Assembly: GCA_025354385.1 (NCBI GenBank)
Contig: JANXMZ010000044.1
Location: forward strand, 1,069 to 65,068
Source: Bacteroidota bacterium
GTDB lineage: Bacteria; Bacteroidota; Bacteroidia; NS11-12g; UBA955
Direction: 5' to 3'
DNA: 64,000 bases
The position numbers and the translations under genes are program-made. Numbering within the stretch: position 1 is the stretch's first letter; each line of letters starts with the position of its first letter. Under the pieces are notes generated by a model that was not told the origin of the DNA, did not search any database, and saw only the letters and a program-made list of their open reading frames with translations. Shown here one piece after another: positions 3,050 through 41,943 of this stretch.

Positions 3050-4015
3050 ATGTTTTATTTTGAAACATCACTCATGTACGACAAAAAGAATTTTAAGATA
3101 CTGTTTTTTGGCACGCCCGATTTTGCTGTTGAATCTTTAAAAGCCATTATAGAAAATGGTTTTAATGTTGTTGGAGTAGTTACAGCGCCTGATAAACCGG
3201 CTGGTCGTGGTTACGAATTGCAACAAAGTGCAGTAAAAAAATATGCTTTAGCACAAGGGCTTAATATTTTACAACCGCCCAATTTAAAGGCCGATGATTT
3301 CAATAATGCCATTAAAGTATTGCAGGCAGATTTACAAATCGTCATTGCTTTTCGCATGTTGCCAGAGAAAGTTTGGAGCATGCCACCCCTTGGGACTTTT
3401 AATCTGCATGCCAGTTATTTACCCAATTACAGGGGAGCGGCTCCTATCAATTGGGCGATTATCAATGGTGAAAAAGAAACGGGTGTTACCACATTTTTTC
3501 TCAAACACGAAATAGATACTGGTAGTATTTTATTACAAGAAACTACTCCAATTTTAGCAGAGGACAATGTAGGAACGCTCCATGATAAACTCATGCGGCA
3601 AGGTGCAGCATTGGTAATAAAATCATTGAATTTGATTTTGAATGGAGATTACAATTTAAAAGAACAGTTGAGTGGTGATTTTAAACATGCATCAAAAATT
3701 TTTACGGAACATTGTAAAATTAATTGGCAAAATAAGGCGGAGGAAGTGCATAATTTAGTGCGTGGCTTATCCCCTTTTCCAACGGCTTTTACCATTCTTC
3801 AGAATAAAAAATTAAAAATATTTGAGACCGAAATGACGGATATAGAAGCTTCTCAAATTGGGCTTGTAGAGATAATCGAAAAGGAACTGTTGATCAATTG
3901 TTCCGATAAAAAATTAAAATTGCTATCTGTGCAACCAGAAGGTAAAAAGAGAATGTCTATAGCTGATTTTCTTAACGGATTCAGAATTAATGAGCTAACG
4001 CTTGCTCAATCATAG
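3050..4015 (+). CDS. fmt: Methionyl-tRNA formyltransferase
   Basis: KILFFGTPDFAV at the N-terminus plus the formyltransferase core (HASLLP..RG) and the C-terminal domain. The true start may be the Met at 3074. Confidence 0.9.
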   Translation: MFYFETSLMYDKKNFKILFFGTPDFAVESLKAIIENGFNVVGVVTAPDKPAGRGYELQQSAVKKYALAQGLNILQPPNLKADDFNNAIKVLQADLQIVIAFRMLPEKVWSMPPLGTFNLHASYLPNYRGAAPINWAIINGEKETGVTTFFLKHEIDTGSILLQETTPILAEDNVGTLHDKLMRQGAALVIKSLNLILNGDYNLKEQLSGDFKHASKIFTEHCKINWQNKAEEVHNLVRGLSPFPTAFTILQNKKLKIFETEMTDIEASQIGLVEIIEKELLINCSDKKLKLLSVQPEGKKRMSIADFLNGFRINELTLAQS

Positions 4016-34871: not shown

Positions 34872-36671
34872 TTATTTTACACCGTGCATACGTTTTATTA
34901 ACCATCTATACATTGAAAGTAATAGAATTGCCGCAGATCCACTTAGTACGATAAATACACAAAAGAAAATAAATAGATTGTTAATCTCTATTCCTAAAAA
35001 TGATGGAATTTTTGCACCTGCTTCCGCGGGTGCTTCACCTGCACCAGGAGGTATTAGTGCAGATAAGGTTCCTGCAAATTTATTTGCAACAGCATTTGCA
35101 AGGAACCAAGTTCCCATTAACAATGAGGACAAGCGTAAAGGGGCTAATTTGCTTACCATACTTAAACCAATTGGGGATAAACAAAGTTCTCCCATTGTAT
35201 GAACAATATATAACGCGAATAACCAGAACATTGCAATTTTAGTTTGAGAGTCAACACCATGCACTGCATAGGCAATTATCACATAGCCTATTGCAACTAA
35301 TGAAAGCCCCATAACCATTTTAATTGGTGATGATGGTTCCATATTTACTTTTGCTAATTTACCCCATAATACAGTGAAAACAGGGGCAAGCAAAATAATG
35401 GCAAGTGGGTTAATCGACTGAAACCATGAAGCTGGAAACTCAATCATGTTAAAGTCATTTAAATGCCCAGTAAATGTTAATGCAACCAAGATAACTATTA
35501 TTATAACTTGTAAAGTTAAAATGAGTGATTTGCTCCACTCAAAAAACCAACCAAATGCTTTCATTAAGAAATAGAATAGAATTGAACCAATAGCTAGTAC
35601 AAAATATTTACTAATATTAATACTTACAGCTCTGTCAACTTGAGCATCTGCAAATAAAGTTAAGGATGCTCCTGCTTGTTCAAAACACGCCCAAAAGAAA
35701 ATAACAAAAAATGCTAATATGAAAATTACAATGATTCGCTCTCTTTCATCTTTTGTTAGTGTCTTATTACTCAATAAAAGTATTGGCATAATTACTATTG
35801 ATGCATAAATTAAATATGCTATAATATCAATATTTGCAATTGTATTTGCGATTGTGCCTTCTAAAGCCACTTCCGATGCCCCAAAGATAGCTGTTACAAT
35901 AAATTTAAAATTTAAGAGTCCGAAAATGAAAACAATTGAACCTATAATAACCCCATAAGTTTTTAAATCCATTTTAGCTTTAGGCATTCCAATAGGAGTC
36001 CCATCCGGGCCCTTTAAATGTTTGTTTTTTAATAATTCAAAGGATATGGTACTTAGGATCATCCCAATTGCCGCTGCTAAAAATCCCCAACGGTAATCAT
36101 GGATACTACCTCCAATTGGTTGTGCTAAAGTTCCGCAAATAAGTGGTGAGAAAAACGCACCCATATTGATCCCCATGTAGAAAATTGTAAATGCACCATC
36201 TACACGAGAGTCATTTTTTGGATATAATTGACCTACCATGGTAGAAATATTTGGTTTAAAAAAACCATTTCCAACAATTAATAAGGTCAATCCCGCCCAC
36301 ATAAAGGTTATTGCCGATGGGCTTTGGACTCCATCTGTAACGGCACTTCCGCTCATGAATAATAAGAACTGACCTAAAGCCATTAGTAGTCCACCAACTA
36401 AAATGCTTCTTCTGTTTCCCCAAAATTTATCAGCAATATAACCACCAAGCAATGGGGTTAAATAGACTAAGCCAGTAAAACTTCCAAAAATATTTGAAGC
36501 AGTTGCTCCACTCATGAATAGGGCTTTTGTCATGAATAAAACGAAGATTGCTCTCATTCCATAATAACTGAACCTTTCCCACATTTCAGTAAAAAACAGC
36601 AGGTATAATCCTCTTGGGTGCCCTTTATCCGAGGCATTTACTTTGTTCTGATCTTCTACAATTACATCCAT
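34872..36671 (-). CDS. POT/PTR2-family peptide transporter (second paralogue)
   Basis: 599 aa; EMWERFSYYGMRAIF. Confidence 0.85.
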   Translation of the reverse strand: MDVIVEDQNKVNASDKGHPRGLYLLFFTEMWERFSYYGMRAIFVLFMTKALFMSGATASNIFGSFTGLVYLTPLLGGYIADKFWGNRRSILVGGLLMALGQFLLFMSGSAVTDGVQSPSAITFMWAGLTLLIVGNGFFKPNISTMVGQLYPKNDSRVDGAFTIFYMGINMGAFFSPLICGTLAQPIGGSIHDYRWGFLAAAIGMILSTISFELLKNKHLKGPDGTPIGMPKAKMDLKTYGVIIGSIVFIFGLLNFKFIVTAIFGASEVALEGTIANTIANIDIIAYLIYASIVIMPILLLSNKTLTKDERERIIVIFILAFFVIFFWACFEQAGASLTLFADAQVDRAVSINISKYFVLAIGSILFYFLMKAFGWFFEWSKSLILTLQVIIIVILVALTFTGHLNDFNMIEFPASWFQSINPLAIILLAPVFTVLWGKLAKVNMEPSSPIKMVMGLSLVAIGYVIIAYAVHGVDSQTKIAMFWLFALYIVHTMGELCLSPIGLSMVSKLAPLRLSSLLMGTWFLANAVANKFAGTLSALIPPGAGEAPAEAGAKIPSFLGIEINNLFIFFCVFIVLSGSAAILLLSMYRWLIKRMHGVK

Positions 36672-36736: not shown

Positions 36737-38947
36737 CTATAAATTCTTTTCGAAGTAGGAACTGATTTTACTGAATAAATGCAATCTGATTTTACCTCCT
36801 CTAATACCATGATTGGTGTTTGGATAGTATGCGGCATCGTAAGGAATATTTTTCTCGTTCATGGTTCTTACCATTTCAACAGCGTTCTGAAAATGGACAT
36901 TGTCATCGGCTGTACCATGTATCAGCAGGTAATTACCTTTTATTTTTTCAACATGGTTAATTGGTGAATTCAAATCGTAGCCATCTGCATTCTCTTGAGG
37001 GGTTCGCATGTAACGCTCTGTATAAATATTGTCATAATAACGCCAGTTGGTAACCGGTGCTACTGCCACTGCGGTTTTAAAATAATCGGCCCCTAGCGTA
37101 ATGCAATTGCTGGCCATAAAACCACCATAGCTCCAACCAAAAATGCCAATTCTGTTTTTGTTAATGTAGGCTTTAGATCCAAAATATTTTGCGGCTTCAA
37201 TATAGTCCATTGTTTCGTATTTGCCCAATTGTAGGTAGGTCATTTTTTTGAATTCCTCACCTCGTCCACCACTACCGCGATTGTCAATAGAAATAATGAT
37301 GTAGCCTTTAGCTGCCATGTATTGGTACCATAAATAATTGGCCCCGGCCCATTGGTTTTTGACGGTTTGGTAGCCTGGTCCGCCATACACAAAAAAGATA
37401 ACAGGGTATTGTTTGGTGCTGTCAAAATTGGGTGGTAGTATGCGCCAATAGTCAAGTCTCACGTTTTCTGTAGACATAAAGCTGCCAAAATCTACCTTGC
37501 CCAAATTTAGGTTCATTAACTTTGTATTTAAGGCCTCATTGTTTTCTAAACTGCGGACCACTTTACCTTCCAAATTCTTGATAACAGTTATAGGAGGGGC
37601 GGTAAGGGTAGAGTAATTATCAGTAAAATAACTGTAGTTAGAGGTAAAGCTAATGGTGTGCCAGCCCGGCTCTGTCGTAATTTGCAGTATCTCTTTGGTG
37701 CCGAGGTCTACCGAATACAATTGCCTTTCGCTAGGCTTGTTCATCCCAGTTGTAAAGTAGGCTTTGCCGTTGTGAATGCCGAGGTATTGATCAATGTCCC
37801 AAGCACCAGTTGTAACGGCCACATCTTTGTTGTTTTTAATTAAATTATTATGGTCTGCCAGAGTATAAGAAACATCTTCCATTTTATACCACAATTGGTT
37901 GTAACCCTTTTTCTCGGATAAATAATACATGGCATTGCCGGCTCCTTCTTTTCTATCCAAACTATTAATGTTTAAATCATTTACCTCAACATAATACTTG
38001 TTGTCTTCTGTATAAAATAGGTTGCAAGCGCCTTTTTCAACATCGGCCAACAATACTTCTAATTTATTTTGGTGCCTGTTCAGTCTCTGAATGCTCAATC
38101 TGTTTTCATTTACCCAACAAATGCGTGGTAAATATTGATCGTTCTCCGAACCTGTTATGCATTTAACAGATTTCTTTTTAGCCACCTTATAAATGTATAC
38201 ATCTACAACACTATTGGGTTGGCCAGCCTTAGGGTATTTCCATGTTTCGCGGGTGGGGTATAATGGTCCGTAAATATCCATCCCAAATTCGGGTACCTTG
38301 CTTTCATCAAACCGGTAATAGGCCAAGTGTTGCCCGTCGGGGCTCCATTCAAAGCCTTTGCTCATGCTAAATTCTTCTTCATAAACCCAATCTACACCGC
38401 CATTAATGATGGCATTTTTTTTACCATCTTTGGTAACTTGTATATCCTTATTTTTTGCAAGGTCGTAGTAATATAAATTATTGTCACTTACATAAGCAAC
38501 CTTGGTGCCATCTGGACTTAAAGTAGCATACATGATTTTTTGATTGGAAATCTGGGTCAGTTTATTAGAAACAATGTCATAAAGATAGGAATTGCTTTTA
38601 CCACTGTGGCGATACACCTGCTCAAAGCCATTGGTAATAACCACTTTCTTTTCATTAGTACTAAACGTGAAACCTTCTATGCCTATAGGCTTTCCGTCTA
38701 CTAAAATTTTATCTGTAGAAAATAGGCTCGTTATTTTATTGCCTGTGGCGATGTCGTAACGGTTGCATGATAGTGATTTATCAGCATTTTGGTCGAGCTT
38801 ACAATAGCTAATTCCATCGGCCATGCTTTGAAAGCCTTGAACAGATTTTGGGGAGTATTCTCTGCTGTTCCAAATGTTTTCGAGGGTGAGTTGAGCATTA
38901 ACTTGTAAGGAGACCGCAAACAAGAGAAGGATAAATAATTGCTTCAT
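36737..38947 (-). CDS. S9B dipeptidyl-peptidase IV-like serine peptidase
   Basis: 736 aa. Signal peptide, N-terminal beta-propeller, and C-terminal alpha/beta hydrolase with GWSYGG. Confidence 0.85.
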   Translation of the reverse strand: MKQLFILLLFAVSLQVNAQLTLENIWNSREYSPKSVQGFQSMADGISYCKLDQNADKSLSCNRYDIATGNKITSLFSTDKILVDGKPIGIEGFTFSTNEKKVVITNGFEQVYRHSGKSNSYLYDIVSNKLTQISNQKIMYATLSPDGTKVAYVSDNNLYYYDLAKNKDIQVTKDGKKNAIINGGVDWVYEEEFSMSKGFEWSPDGQHLAYYRFDESKVPEFGMDIYGPLYPTRETWKYPKAGQPNSVVDVYIYKVAKKKSVKCITGSENDQYLPRICWVNENRLSIQRLNRHQNKLEVLLADVEKGACNLFYTEDNKYYVEVNDLNINSLDRKEGAGNAMYYLSEKKGYNQLWYKMEDVSYTLADHNNLIKNNKDVAVTTGAWDIDQYLGIHNGKAYFTTGMNKPSERQLYSVDLGTKEILQITTEPGWHTISFTSNYSYFTDNYSTLTAPPITVIKNLEGKVVRSLENNEALNTKLMNLNLGKVDFGSFMSTENVRLDYWRILPPNFDSTKQYPVIFFVYGGPGYQTVKNQWAGANYLWYQYMAAKGYIIISIDNRGSGGRGEEFKKMTYLQLGKYETMDYIEAAKYFGSKAYINKNRIGIFGWSYGGFMASNCITLGADYFKTAVAVAPVTNWRYYDNIYTERYMRTPQENADGYDLNSPINHVEKIKGNYLLIHGTADDNVHFQNAVEMVRTMNEKNIPYDAAYYPNTNHGIRGGKIRLHLFSKISSYFEKNL

Positions 38948-39039
38948 GGTTGAATATATAAACCACGAAAATAGTAGAAAAAAGAGAGGTACAAAAATTA
39001 GTTAGATAAACGGGGTGGCAGGAATAAGGTTTGGGTATA

Positions 39040-39880
39040 TTTTACCACATAAGTTAGATAGGTTTTTTTCTTTTTGATTTTTGGAATTATACTCACTATA
39101 GGGATATATCAAAAGCTTTACTCTTTCCGAATGTATTTAAGTGAACATAAGTTTTTTTTGCTATGCAAAAAAATGGGTAGCTCTGGCTTTTGTAGCTAAC
39201 GATTTTAGTGAGTTAATTAATTGCTAGGGCTATTTATGTTAAAGCACTTAGGAAATGTGTTTAATGTTCAGCTAAGTGAGTGTAGTATTCATTCACTAAA
39301 GTTTTTTGTCCTTCGTGGAATAAATTTTTTACATTGAAATTTAATAGTAATCCACGTGGTATTTTGAGAAGTTTCATATAGCTCAATACTTGCGCTTCAT
39401 GGATTGGAGCAAACTCCTCAATTGATTTAATTTCAACAACCATACATCTTTCAACTAAGAAGTCACATCTAACATTAGATTCTAATATATTGCCCTTATA
39501 AGTTACAGGTATTACAAATTCAGATTCAAAATTGATTTTTCGAATTCCTAACTCGTGAATTAAAGATTGATGATAAATACTCTCTAGCAGTCCAGGCCCA
39601 AGTGTCTTATGCACCTCTATTGCAGCAGCATTAAATTGATAGGTTAAGTCTTTTAAGTACGCCTTGGTGATTTTCATATTTTCAAATTTTAGTTTCATCA
39701 AAAATGCAAAATGTATTTTAAAAGTCAAAAAAATATATTCTTCAATCTTTTTTACAAAGTAAAAAAGAACTTATGTTGACTTAGATAAACTGAATCGGAG
39801 CAACAAAATTTTGATTTGATATGGAAATTTATTGGTCATATCAAACTAAAAATAATACTTATCTAACTTATGTGGTAAAA
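39040..39880. mobile_element. Cassette bounded by perfect 21-bp inverted repeats, carrying a GxxExxY gene (IVS-like or MITE-like)
   Basis: TTTTACCACATAAGTTAGATA at 39040-39060 and its exact reverse complement at 39860-39880. TTAGATAAAC direct repeats sit at 39002 and 39781. Confidence 0.4.
39261..39677 (-). CDS. GxxExxY protein (PD-(D/E)XK nuclease-like superfamily)
   Basis: GPGLLESIY plus D...VVEIK motifs. The start was chosen at MKITKAY. The ORF-track start at 39728 adds 17 aa. Confidence 0.8.
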   Translation of the reverse strand: MKITKAYLKDLTYQFNAAAIEVHKTLGPGLLESIYHQSLIHELGIRKINFESEFVIPVTYKGNILESNVRCDFLVERCMVVEIKSIEEFAPIHEAQVLSYMKLLKIPRGLLLNFNVKNLFHEGQKTLVNEYYTHLAEH

Positions 39881-41943
39881 GTGTCTTTGTTAGTGTATGT
39901 CTGCGGTGCTTCACATACCTTGTCTTTGCAAGGGTAGATAAGGGCTTCGCCCATGTATTGTTTGCCTTCGAAGAGTGGTATAACAGTGTCCTTACCCGCA
40001 AAGCCAAACAGGGCATTCGGGGTTTTGTAATGTTGTTTAAGTGGCAGTGTGTTTCTTAAATTTTCATCAGCTGCTAAAATAATTTGATGGGTGCCTTCCT
40101 CTTTGAGTAATTGCAAAGCCGCCCAATGACTGTACCAAGGTGCACTTTTTTGTATGCTTGGTGTTAATGCATTGAGCATGGTTTCGGCAAAAACAAACCA
40201 ATCGGTATGATAAAAATAGAATGATAAGCGCCAAAGATTATGTGCCATGATACTATTGCCACTGCTAATTACATCATCGTTTACATCGTATTTAGGTGTG
40301 ATTAGAGTTTCGCTAGCATTAGCATTGAATTCAAAGAAACCATTTTTCTTGTTGTAGAAATTGGCTACAGTGTATTCGCAAATTTCCTTAGCTTTTAATA
40401 AATGGGCTTCGTTAAAAGTTGCCTGATAAGTGGTGATTAATCCATCAATCAAAGTAGCATAATCTTCTAAGAAAGCATCAATCTTTACCTGTCTATTTTT
40501 GCTGGTGCGTTTCAGTCCTTCAAAAGAATAATAAGTACTTGTAATGGTGTTTGCTAAAGCATTAGCTTGTGTTGCAAAGCTCGGTTCATCTAGCCACAAC
40601 GCGGCTTCGGCCAAGGCTTTTAACATAAGGTTATTCCAACTGCAAATGCATTTATCGTCTAAGCCAGGGGCAATTCTTTTTGAGCGAAAGGTTTTTAATT
40701 TTTCAAGTCCTACTGCAATCAAAGTTGTTAATTTTTGTTCATCATTATTGAGTTGTTGTGCTGCATTATCGATGGTATCAATGGCATATAAAATATTGCG
40801 GTTGTGCTCCCAATTGCCAGTGGGAATACACTGGTAATAGCGACAGAAATCACCCGCAGTATCGCCTAATACGTTGGTTAATTCTTCGTAGGTGTAAGTG
40901 TAATATAAACCTTCTATACCCTCGCTATCGGCATCATAAGCAGAGTAAAATAAACCATTCTCTGCTTTCATTTCGGTATTGCAAAAGGCTAAAGTATCGA
41001 GTGCTATTTTTTTGTAAAATAGATTTTGAGAAATAGCATAGGCATAGCTATACAAACTAATCAATTGGGCATTGTCATATAACATTTTTTCGAAGTGAGG
41101 AGCAAACCATCTTTTGTCTACCGAGTAGCGCGCAAAGCCCCCTGCCACTGGATCGTAGATACCGCCTAATGCCATCTGTTTTAAAGTAAACAAACCCATA
41201 TCGGTAGCACTTTGATTGTTTTTTAATTCCCCATATTGTAACAAGTAACGGTAGTTCGAAGGCATGGGGAATTTAGGTGCGCGGTTCGGTCCACCATAAA
41301 CCGTGTCGTATTGTGCTTCGAATACTTTTAATATTACATCACCTATTTTTTCATTCGAGGCAGTAGTGTTTAATGCAGGTGCTAAGCTCATGTTGGCAAT
41401 GCCCTGACTTAATTTCTTAGCATAGTCAATAGCAGTTTGTGGTTCCTTTTGCCACAAACCATGCAGGTTCAAAAGGAGTTCTTGCCACTGGGCTTTGGGG
41501 GCATAAGTCATGGCATGCAAGGGGCGCTTGTCGGGCAAAGTAAATGCATTCAAAGGCCAGCCGCCATTGCCATTTACTAGTTGACAAGCATCCATGTATA
41601 TTTGATCCACATCGGGCAATTCTTCTCTATCTATTTTTATACAAACAAAATGTTCATTCATAATAGCTGCTGTGGCCTCATCTTCGAAACATTCGTGGGC
41701 CATCACATGGCACCAATGACAAGCGCTGTAACCAATGCTTACAATCATCAATTTATTTTCTCTGCGCGCTTTTTCAAAAGCCTCTTCTCCCCACTCATAC
41801 CAGTCGACTGGGTTATAGGCATGCTGTACCAAATAGGGGCTTAAAGAATTAATTAAGCGATTTGTTTTTTTGTATGAATTTTCCAAAATAGATTTGTAGC
41901 TTGTGGTGAGTAATAATGGTCGCGCAAAAATAAACAATACCAC
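39868..41943 (-). CDS. Thioredoxin-domain protein YyaL/DUF255 (N-acylglucosamine 2-epimerase-like fold)
   Basis: [16 protein letters not shown]...[12 protein letters not shown]; 691 aa. Confidence 0.85.

Follow-up and report, generated by a model that had tools for sequence, protein, structure and literature searches.

Many bacterial genomes have annotated GxxExxY genes, frequently more than one, and the function of the family is listed as 'Unknown' (PMC3424549). Among described systems, the closest analogue in logic of the arrangement examined here is formed by doublets of repetitive extragenic palindromes (REPs), termed REPINs, together with the REP-associated tyrosine transposases (RAYTs) (PMC3116915, PMC3337134). 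As in the GxxExxY case, a single small nuclease-type gene is located between inverted short repeat units, cargo-less inverted doublets (here those of relatives) occupy intergenic positions, inheritance is mostly vertical with occasional movement, and the repeat co-varies with the protein. The locus studied here lies in a 64-kb window (36% G+C) on contig JANXMZ010000044.1 of a Bacteroidota bacterium; the window is the whole stretch of DNA that was analyzed, coordinates without a prefix refer to it, and L-numbers denote loci compared with its cassette. Within the window, 39033–39886 is a discrete cassette in which one GxxExxY gene and its own leader are placed between two inverted end units of ~145 bp. 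On balance, we favor the reading that this is a small mobile cassette bounded by inverted repeats, with a history of insertion, loss and inversion, the ends of which are predicted protein-binding iteron arrays. The module is present at different loci and in both orientations, and sites without it, gene-less remnants and solo ends are found as well. In addition, compact versions of the same architecture surround distant GxxExxY genes in several phyla, with a repeat sequence that changes with the protein clade. These observations suggest that the widespread GxxExxY family travels as a so far undescribed small mobile element.

By the definitions of the known classes, the cassette is neither an insertion sequence (IS) element, nor a miniature inverted-repeat transposable element (MITE), nor a RAYT system, nor an intervening sequence (IVS) of an rRNA gene. 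RAYTs are HUH/Y1 (IS200/IS605-like) transposases acting on hairpin single-stranded DNA, whereas the cassette enzyme is of the PD-(D/E)XK type. Likewise, REPs are GTAG-headed palindromes, whereas the cassette repeats are arrays of 9–10-bp direct iterons, and cargo-less REPIN copies number hundreds per genome, whereas those seen here look rare, with a single region in each Flavobacterium locus and none in the rest of the window. With IS elements and MITEs the cassette shares terminal inverted repeats, a short length, presence/absence polymorphism, both orientations and gene-less derivatives. Unlike an IS element, however, it contains no DDE, serine, tyrosine or HUH transposase, and its copy number is very low. 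An earlier sequence-only reading of the locus had proposed a MITE-like non-autonomous element; cargo-less inverted-repeat mini-elements with the same iterons do occur in relatives, but the cassette itself differs from a MITE in carrying an intact open reading frame (ORF), in having only two arms, that is, one copy, in 64 kb, and in showing no target-site duplication. Its ends, 29–145 bp long with internal iterons, are closer to those of Tn7 or Mu than to simple IS repeats. Homing endonuclease genes are similar in being lone nuclease ORFs between housekeeping genes (here sufE|DUF59, fabD|fabG, and radA and its neighbor), sporadic among close relatives and possibly expressed from host read-through; they are not normally bounded by inverted iteron arrays, whereas the GxxExxY cassette is. 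Free-standing homing genes include phage seg and mob, and I-Ssp6803I is a homing enzyme of the PD-(D/E)XK type. The IVSs of 23S rRNA in Coxiella and Leptospira (PMC4990558) resemble the cassette in outline, as short selfish inserts with one small ORF and complementary ends, but they sit in an rRNA helix, whereas the cassette lies between protein-coding genes and showed no sign of selection for RNA pairing in the comparisons made here; moreover, the IVS ORF of Coxiella encodes S23p, a different protein from GxxExxY (PMC4990558). Finally, the pdif modules of Acinetobacter (PMC6449649) are also small gene modules with inverted recombination sites, varied contexts and orientations and no classical transposase of their own. 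By comparison, pdif sites are 28-bp XerC/XerD sites on plasmids, whereas the cassette arms are chromosomal, have another layout and vary with the cargo protein.

The ends of the cassette are defined by the 21-mer TTTTACCACATAAGTTAGATA at 39040–39060 (plus strand), which is matched by its exact reverse complement at 39860–39880, confirming the perfect 21-bp inverted repeats of the sequence-only reading. This inverted pair accounts for both matches to the 21-mer in the window, even with three mismatches allowed, and no match was found in 100 dinucleotide-preserving shuffles of the window. A whole-window scan for inverted repeats at a spacing of up to 1.5 kb placed the 21-mer pair and a second pair nested inside it (39134–39159 and 39762–39787; 26 nt, 88%) in the top two ranks. 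The repeats had been described as 21 nt long, which is correct for the perfect part, but the arms reach well beyond it: in the output of the repeat finder the outer pair covers 33 nt (88%), and alignment of 38990–39265 with the reverse complement of 39675–39930 reveals that 39033–39178 is homologous along its length to the reverse complement of 39740–39886, over ~145 nt. Each of the resulting end units runs from Box A through a variable middle to Box B. The upstream unit (39740–39886, minus strand, in the sense of the gene) and the downstream unit (39033–39178, plus strand, inverted relative to the upstream one) match an nhmmer profile built from nine unit copies with E-values of 8.5e-29 and 2.5e-27, respectively, and are the only matches to this profile in the window, which contains one cassette.

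The right Box A (39860–39880, minus strand) consists of two tandem 9-nt iterons, CACATAAGT and TAGATAAGT, with TAAG cores 9 nt apart, and the left Box A occupies 39040–39060 (plus strand); the perfect 21-bp repeat is Box A itself. The right Box B (39746–39790, minus strand) is formed by the iterons TATCTAAGT and CAACATAAGT followed by the A/T hairpin TCTTTTTTAC AAA GTAAAAAAGA (39746–39768), and the left Box B (39134–39173, plus strand) by TATTTAAGT and GAACATAAGT followed by the hairpin TTTTTTGC TAT GCAAAAAA (39154–39172). Across the nine unit copies, which come from four loci, Box A (TTTTACCACATAAGTnnGATAAG, the tip of the unit) and Box B (TTAAGTGAACATAAGTT(C)TTTTTTGCnnnGCAAAAAA, two iterons at 10-nt spacing and then an 8-bp A/T hairpin) are invariant, whereas the middle is freely variable. 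Each unit thereby carries two pairs of 9–10-bp direct iterons with the core ATAAGT, and the cores are spaced at 9–10 nt in the window cassette and at 8–10 nt in other clades. RNAalifold analysis of the nine units supported the 8-bp A/T hairpin of Box B alone, the single G–C pair of which is swapped for A–U in three of the nine copies, and found no conserved structure in the variable middle. The order of the parts is constant: Box A to Box B, leader, gene, 3' region, and Box B to Box A in inverted sense. The leader (39678–39745, minus strand), which is gene-proximal, contains CATTTTGCATTTTTGATGAAACTAAAAT and is probably promoter-like, is conserved in relatives; its block upstream of the ATG recurs in L003, L007 and L046 and is kept in the gene-less locus L026.

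A direct repeat, TTAGATAAAC, had been placed about 38 bp from each end. It is present at 39002 and 39781, but its placement is not symmetric, as one copy lies 38 nt outside the left arm and the other, ~70 nt inside the right arm, is a Box B iteron; as a 10-mer repeat in ~900 AT-rich bases, it is not significant alone. The outer copy is included in an iteron-like fragment, ATTAGTTAGATAAAC (38997–39011, plus strand; 12 nt, 92% to 39049–39060), and the corresponding stretch of L026 reads GTCTAACAAA. This fragment is possibly the vestige of an older Box A; the resemblance is weak and could be due to chance.

The gene (39261–39677, minus strand), the sole GxxExxY gene of the window, encodes 138 amino acids from an ATG at 39677, the mechanical ORF start being a TTG at 39728. 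It had been called the only ORF between the arms, and it is indeed the only substantial one; a 41-amino-acid ORF at 39074–39199 (plus strand) appears in the mechanical listing as well. The protein is a bona fide member of TIGR04256 ('GxxExxY protein'; E 1.5e-38, 131.8 bits against a cut-off of 35) and of PF13366 (PDDEXK_3; E 1.8e-37, 128.7 bits against a cut-off of 22), and no other Pfam or NCBIfam match was found in the cassette. S23p, by comparison, is presumably PF05635 and not PF13366. The sequence-only reading had described GxxExxY genes as best known from 23S rRNA IVSs; in the literature searched, three papers name GxxExxY, none of them in connection with IVSs. The family motif G-x-x-E-x-x-Y is represented by G29-L-L-E32-S-I-Y35 in GPGLLESIY, and G29, E32, Y35, D72, E82 and K84 are invariant in 20 aligned homologues (57–87% identical). 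In the AlphaFold model (pLDDT, predicted local distance difference test, 88.7), the restriction-endonuclease-like alpha-beta-beta-beta-alpha-beta core is present, and the predicted catalytic residues, all intact, are located on helix H32–45 (E32) and on strands E70–75 and E79–84 (D72 and E82-I-K84, respectively). The modeled fold is that of Cas4/restriction-endonuclease-like PD-(D/E)XK proteins, and the protein is a predicted nuclease. A PDB sequence search returned no close solved relative, and PADLOC and PHROGs gave weak Cas4-domain similarity only, with no defense-system assignment. Three loci on viral contigs encode 39–41% identical homologues lacking flanking repeats, and phage genomes gave no matches; there was no sign of a phage link in these searches.

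Comparison with close relatives reveals the same module at other loci and in other states. L003 and L007 (contigs of the Joint Genome Institute, JGI) and L012 have the same unit architecture and proteins 85–86% identical to that of the window, but between enoyl-CoA hydratase (ECH) and glycoside hydrolase family 3 (GH3)/beta-lactamase genes rather than at the YyaL|DPP-IV (dipeptidyl peptidase IV) site of the window; the outer inverted repeat of L003 measures 29 nt (97%). The ECH|GH3 flanks are orthologous in the three loci, and the gene is co-directional with the hydratase gene in L003 and opposed to it in L007 and L012. Over its full length, the ECH-side unit of L012 is orthologous to that of L003, while the gene between the units is flipped, and L007 carries additional tandem and same-sense units. 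At YyaL|DPP-IV, L046 encodes a protein 96% identical to that of the window in a cassette that has a single unit upstream and a tandem pair of units downstream, whereas L026 (YyaL 88% identical) has four units (+,+,−,−) and the leader without the GxxExxY gene, and L025 (YyaL 85% identical) is without the cassette, DPP-IV directly following YyaL after a 200-nt spacer. An exact 21-mer scan of 185,579 species genomes gave one match, L002, a different Bacteroidota metagenome-assembled genome (MAG), in which a complete solo unit with no trace of the gene lies beside a 245-amino-acid ORF (panB-like by eye only). The element is therefore not at a single syntenic locus, sites lacking the cassette exist, and the 21-mer recurs at a third locus, the reverse of three observations that the sequence-only reading had named as speaking against mobility; mobility is supported accordingly. 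A housekeeping-divergence comparison of the window with L003 and L007 found no other shared genes, and horizontal and vertical descent are not separable by it.

In a scan of metagenome contigs with the Box A pattern, L012 was the only true locus; 12 matches represent one unrelated locus and one is due to chance. The 12 contigs (L008–L011, L013–L019 and L021, several labeled human gut) share TTACCACATAAGTGGGATAAG at one high-GC intergenic locus, and this sequence was rejected as a Box A copy, being a chance resemblance with no unit around it.

The host gene at the right end has probably been altered by the insertion. Within the right arm lie the YyaL TAA stop (39868–39870), the three codons before it (F-T-T) and a single base of the next codon inward; the overlap with the stop had been predicted correctly, but that with four full codons had not. 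The YyaL C-terminus reads …FTT in the window and L026, and the FTT codons are kept in L046, where the ORF reads on (…FTTPRSRFDANKKQS, then stop). Since YyaL of the cassette-free L025 ends in …YSVENN and not in …FTT, the insertion appears to have remodeled the YyaL 3' end, with Box A now supplying F-T-T and the stop. In L026, ~38 nt of the YyaL 3' coding end are duplicated between units 1 and 2 (L026:2911–2950 and 3110–3147); the two copies keep the reading frame, and most of their differences fall on third codon positions, which suggests recombination between diverged alleles rather than duplication in situ. A further junction is found at L003:6715–6744, L007:6633–6665 and L046:640–712, where CC(G/T)C(G/A)AA… comes after a truncated Box A (TTTACCACA) and leads into a new Box A or a TAAGT half. 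The breaks of Box A in these three loci always fall between ACCACA and TAAGT, which may be the point of cleavage or joining.

The same architecture extends over the GxxExxY family, of which at least 8000 homologues were scored. In Flavobacterium (L030–32; 62% identical to the window protein), the gene lies between sufE and a DUF59 gene, where three CATnTAAG iterons make up a 29-nt inverted repeat (90%) that directly adjoins the ORF. In the MAG locus L033 (67%), iteron clusters of the CATnTAAG type are found on both sides of the gene, which is upstream of a DEAD-box helicase gene and has a cut 59-amino-acid ORF as its own upstream neighbor. The Bacteroides finegoldii gene (L039; 43%), between radA and its neighbor, has a 30-nt inverted repeat with CACAGAGGA iterons, and that of Bernardetia (L040; 42%), between adenine deaminase and mannose-1-phosphate guanylyltransferase genes, has inverted flanks with ACACAGAG iterons. 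The Sphingomonas gene (L043; 36%) is inside fabD|fabG and bounded by a 25–27-nt inverted repeat of CGCGAAG iterons; the Treponema gene (L042; 38%) has a hypothetical gene and a Fic-family gene as neighbors and is bounded by the inverted 11-mer ACACGGATTCG. By comparison, the flanks are direct repeats of 37 nt in Prevotella (L044; 31%), between hypothetical genes, and of 52 nt in a Fusobacteria bacterium (L045; 37%), between genes for an ATP-binding protein and a metal-dependent hydrolase. In Sphingomonas parapaucimobilis (L043:525–990), the cassette splits the normally contiguous fabD–fabG, and its downstream arm is within the annotated 3' end of the ORF; the annotated C-terminus of this GxxExxY protein may be partly repeat-encoded.

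Presence and absence at a conserved site are best seen in the Flavobacterium suf operon. In L034–38, whose SufE proteins are 89–94% identical, the suf-operon genes are 6–65 nt apart (6 nt in L034), with neither arms nor gene, and these loci read as clean empty sites relative to the filled sites L030–32 at SufE|DUF59. The YyaL|DPP-IV site is likewise filled in the window and L046 and not in L025. Flank-repeat scores of at least 16, obtained by a simple ungapped scoring, were reached by nine of 15 GxxExxY genes and by none of 48 control ORFs taken from the window (control maximum 13; Fisher p = 2e-7). Furthermore, the type of repeat follows the protein: TAAG repeats belong to a clade of 59–87% identity, CACAGAG repeats to Bacteroides and Bernardetia (mutual best matches, 56%), and ACACGGATT repeats to Treponema and the Fusobacteria bacterium (mutual best matches, 49%, across phyla). 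Co-variation of repeat and protein clade even across phyla fits a joint transfer of both. A further GxxExxY gene, 63% identical and tightly placed between genes, is found at L028:125–541 in the same sequencing run as the window contig (SRR23617210); it could belong to the organism of the window, as a paralogue, or to a different one.

In the mobile-cassette model, the iteron arrays are putative binding sites for a protein at both ends, as at transposon ends, and the nuclease would be the only element-encoded candidate for iteron binding and mobilization. The element would move when DNA is cleaved or recombined at the conserved ACCACA tip or close to it, either being excised and inserted elsewhere or being copied, in the manner of homing, into related inverted-repeat mini-elements. 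Flipping of the cassette would result from recombination of one inverted arm with the other, and the number of units would drift via tandem duplication.

Several observations weigh against this model. No target-site duplication was seen beside the arms of the window cassette or of L003, nor at the filled versus empty junctions of Flavobacterium. The copy number is low, as the 64 kb contain a single cassette and no further unit, and no identical copies were seen at two sites of one genome, so that recent transposition is not demonstrated. The pattern could instead have arisen from old insertions followed by deletions, inversions and homologous exchange between strains, and L026 has a duplicated YyaL 3' end with synonymous differences. 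L025 is not a clean empty site, because 155 nt are replaced there by another small inverted repeat. No flanking repeat was found at the GxxExxY genes of L028, L041, L022 and L024, and the flanks of the two family members from Prevotella and the Fusobacteria bacterium are direct, not inverted. The controls of the enrichment test come from one genome, and three of its nine positives from one clade. Finally, no small PD-(D/E)XK nuclease is known to act alone as a transposase.

Among the alternatives, the one that survives best, though we regard it as unlikely, reverses the roles of gene and ends: the inverted-repeat units would be pre-existing intergenic repeats (REPIN- or MITE-like doublets) into the center of which a free-standing gene of the homing-endonuclease type inserted, the arms being the split target. 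Inverted doublets that have these iterons but no cargo do exist. In each of the eight Flavobacterium loci compared, the spacer between a beta-lactamase gene (bla) and sufS contains an inverted iteron doublet of 65–150 nt without cargo (L030:645–720; L035:60–195; L034:60–160), of the TAAG type in seven loci and of the ACCACAAAAG type in L034, and in genomes with the suf cassette this doublet and the cassette are both of the TAAG type. Either the bla|sufS spacer is a hotspot of insertion, or its doublet is an old element that evolves fast. In the spacer of L025 (7011–7128), a 118-nt element is bounded by the inverted tandem 9-mers CACAAAAGC (ACACAAAAGCCACAAAAG / CTTTTGTGCCTTTTGTGT), and a AAGTCACAAAAG motif, similar to these 9-mers, adjoins the solo unit of L002 (7061–7100). 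Both the L025 element and the bla|sufS doublets have the appearance of this kind of element without its gene. A split symmetric target would also take the gene in either orientation, as in L003 and L012, where the gene is flipped beside an orthologous unit, and would leave units without a gene, as in L026. However, in the Flavobacterium suf operon arms and gene are present or absent together, and the empty sites have neither. Units are, moreover, rare away from GxxExxY genes in the sequence examined, with none elsewhere in the 64-kb window, and the joint change of repeat type and protein clade across phyla fits a transfer of both rather than an independent target.

A role of the arms at the RNA level, put forward in the sequence-only reading as an excised RNA with an RNase III stem, is also improbable, and somewhat more so. 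The arms would pair in a read-through transcript, and RNase III would release the GxxExxY mRNA, or the stem would sequester the start region of a potentially toxic nuclease gene in a hok-type fold-back, mobility being secondary. Since YyaL, DPP-IV and the cassette gene share the minus strand, one transcript can include both arms. In addition, the fold of the repeat pair, which had been suggested as a check, does pair the Box A arms in both the minimum free energy and the centroid structures (z = −3.99); arm complementarity is 21/21 in the window and 28/29 in L003, the lone mismatch being a sense-strand G:U; and in the compact cassettes a purine-rich upstream arm (GAGGA, AAGG) abuts the ATG, the downstream arm being its complement. 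The mismatches, however, show no wobble bias: of 30 in nine arm pairs, four are sense G:U, eight antisense G:U and 18 non-wobble, close to a chance split. In L031 and L032, the left arm of the Flavobacterium cassette has degenerated, and the right arm carries no compensating changes. The direct repeats of the Prevotella and Fusobacteria copies are unable to form a stem, and solo, tandem and same-sense units are found in L002, L007, L026 and L046; a periodicity of 9–10 nt would be pointless in an RNase III substrate, and Rfam gave no family match. Taken together, the absence of a G:U bias, the uncompensated decay, the direct, solo, tandem and same-sense arrangements and the helically phased iterons favor protein-binding DNA ends over an RNA stem.

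Considerably less probable still is a host-controlled invertible or Xer-type module, in which the arms would be sites for a chromosomal site-specific recombinase, as in Acinetobacter pdif or the invertible regions of Bacteroides, and the nuclease gene passive cargo. The arm core ACTTATGT is loosely similar to TTATGT of XerD arms. Both cassette orientations occur between the same flanks, and the modular behavior in varied contexts resembles that of dif modules (PMC6449649). By eye, however, the arms are direct iteron arrays and not the 11-6-11 palindromic layout of dif, and no recombinase gene is linked at any locus examined. Furthermore, the repeats differ radically by clade (TAAG, CACAGAG, CGCGAAG and ACACGGATT) yet track the cargo, which is unexpected with a conserved host recombinase. 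A last reading, by which the repeats arose by chance or by inverted duplication of the YyaL 3' end within the locus, is made imaginable by the position of the right arm over the YyaL stop, the left arm being cast as a copy of host sequence; it is refuted, because Box A stands in units beside unrelated genes in other organisms (L002, L003, L007 and L012), YyaL of L025 ends differently without Box A, and not one of the 100 shuffles contained even a single 21-mer match.

Beyond the mobile cassette itself, a wider proposal can be put forward tentatively, and we hold it to be possible rather than probable: GxxExxY proteins would be the dedicated enzymes of an unrecognized class of minimal mobile cassettes across several phyla, each a nuclease gene within inverted, clade-specific 8–10-bp iterons with an ACCAC/TCAC-type tip. 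The cargo-less doublets would be their non-autonomous derivatives, the whole would form a PD-(D/E)XK counterpart of the RAYT/REPIN systems, and it would possibly be the agent behind ORF-bearing inserts in rRNA genes. For a family listed without a function, repeat-bounded and insertion-polymorphic cassettes with co-varying ends offer a testable role, in which a selfish nuclease carries along the arrays that it recognizes. Confirmation of this role would add a new enzyme class to the few proteins that drive small bacterial mobile elements, and would explain a source of operon interruption and of C-terminal remodeling of host genes. The clade-specific recognition of iterons might also be exploitable in compact sequence-specific nucleases.

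Rfam analysis of the window, the cassette and ten related loci returned no match to the arms or mini-elements and neither rRNA nor any other family in the window, and a scan for sigma-70 promoters and terminators was uninformative, promoter-like sites being fewer than in shuffles. A Flavo-1 RNA (RF01705, 73 bits) is located at L034:1482–1554, between sufS and the next gene, with a weak match at L030:2007–2093; it is unrelated to the iterons. The host genes flanking the window cassette are both on the minus strand: a thioredoxin-domain protein of the YyaL/DUF255 type at 39868–41943 (PF03190, E 1.9e-64) and dipeptidyl peptidase IV at 36737–38947 (PF00930, E 1.9e-88; PF00326, E 1.2e-55), the start of the latter (38947) being 93–113 nt from the left arm, which is upstream of it. 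The DPP-IV gene is followed by two tandem genes for peptide transporters of the PTR2/major facilitator superfamily (MFS) type, at 34872–36671 and downstream (L001:7478–11033). Together, the DPP-IV and PTR2/MFS genes form a peptide-uptake cluster, and the cassette is located at its upstream edge.

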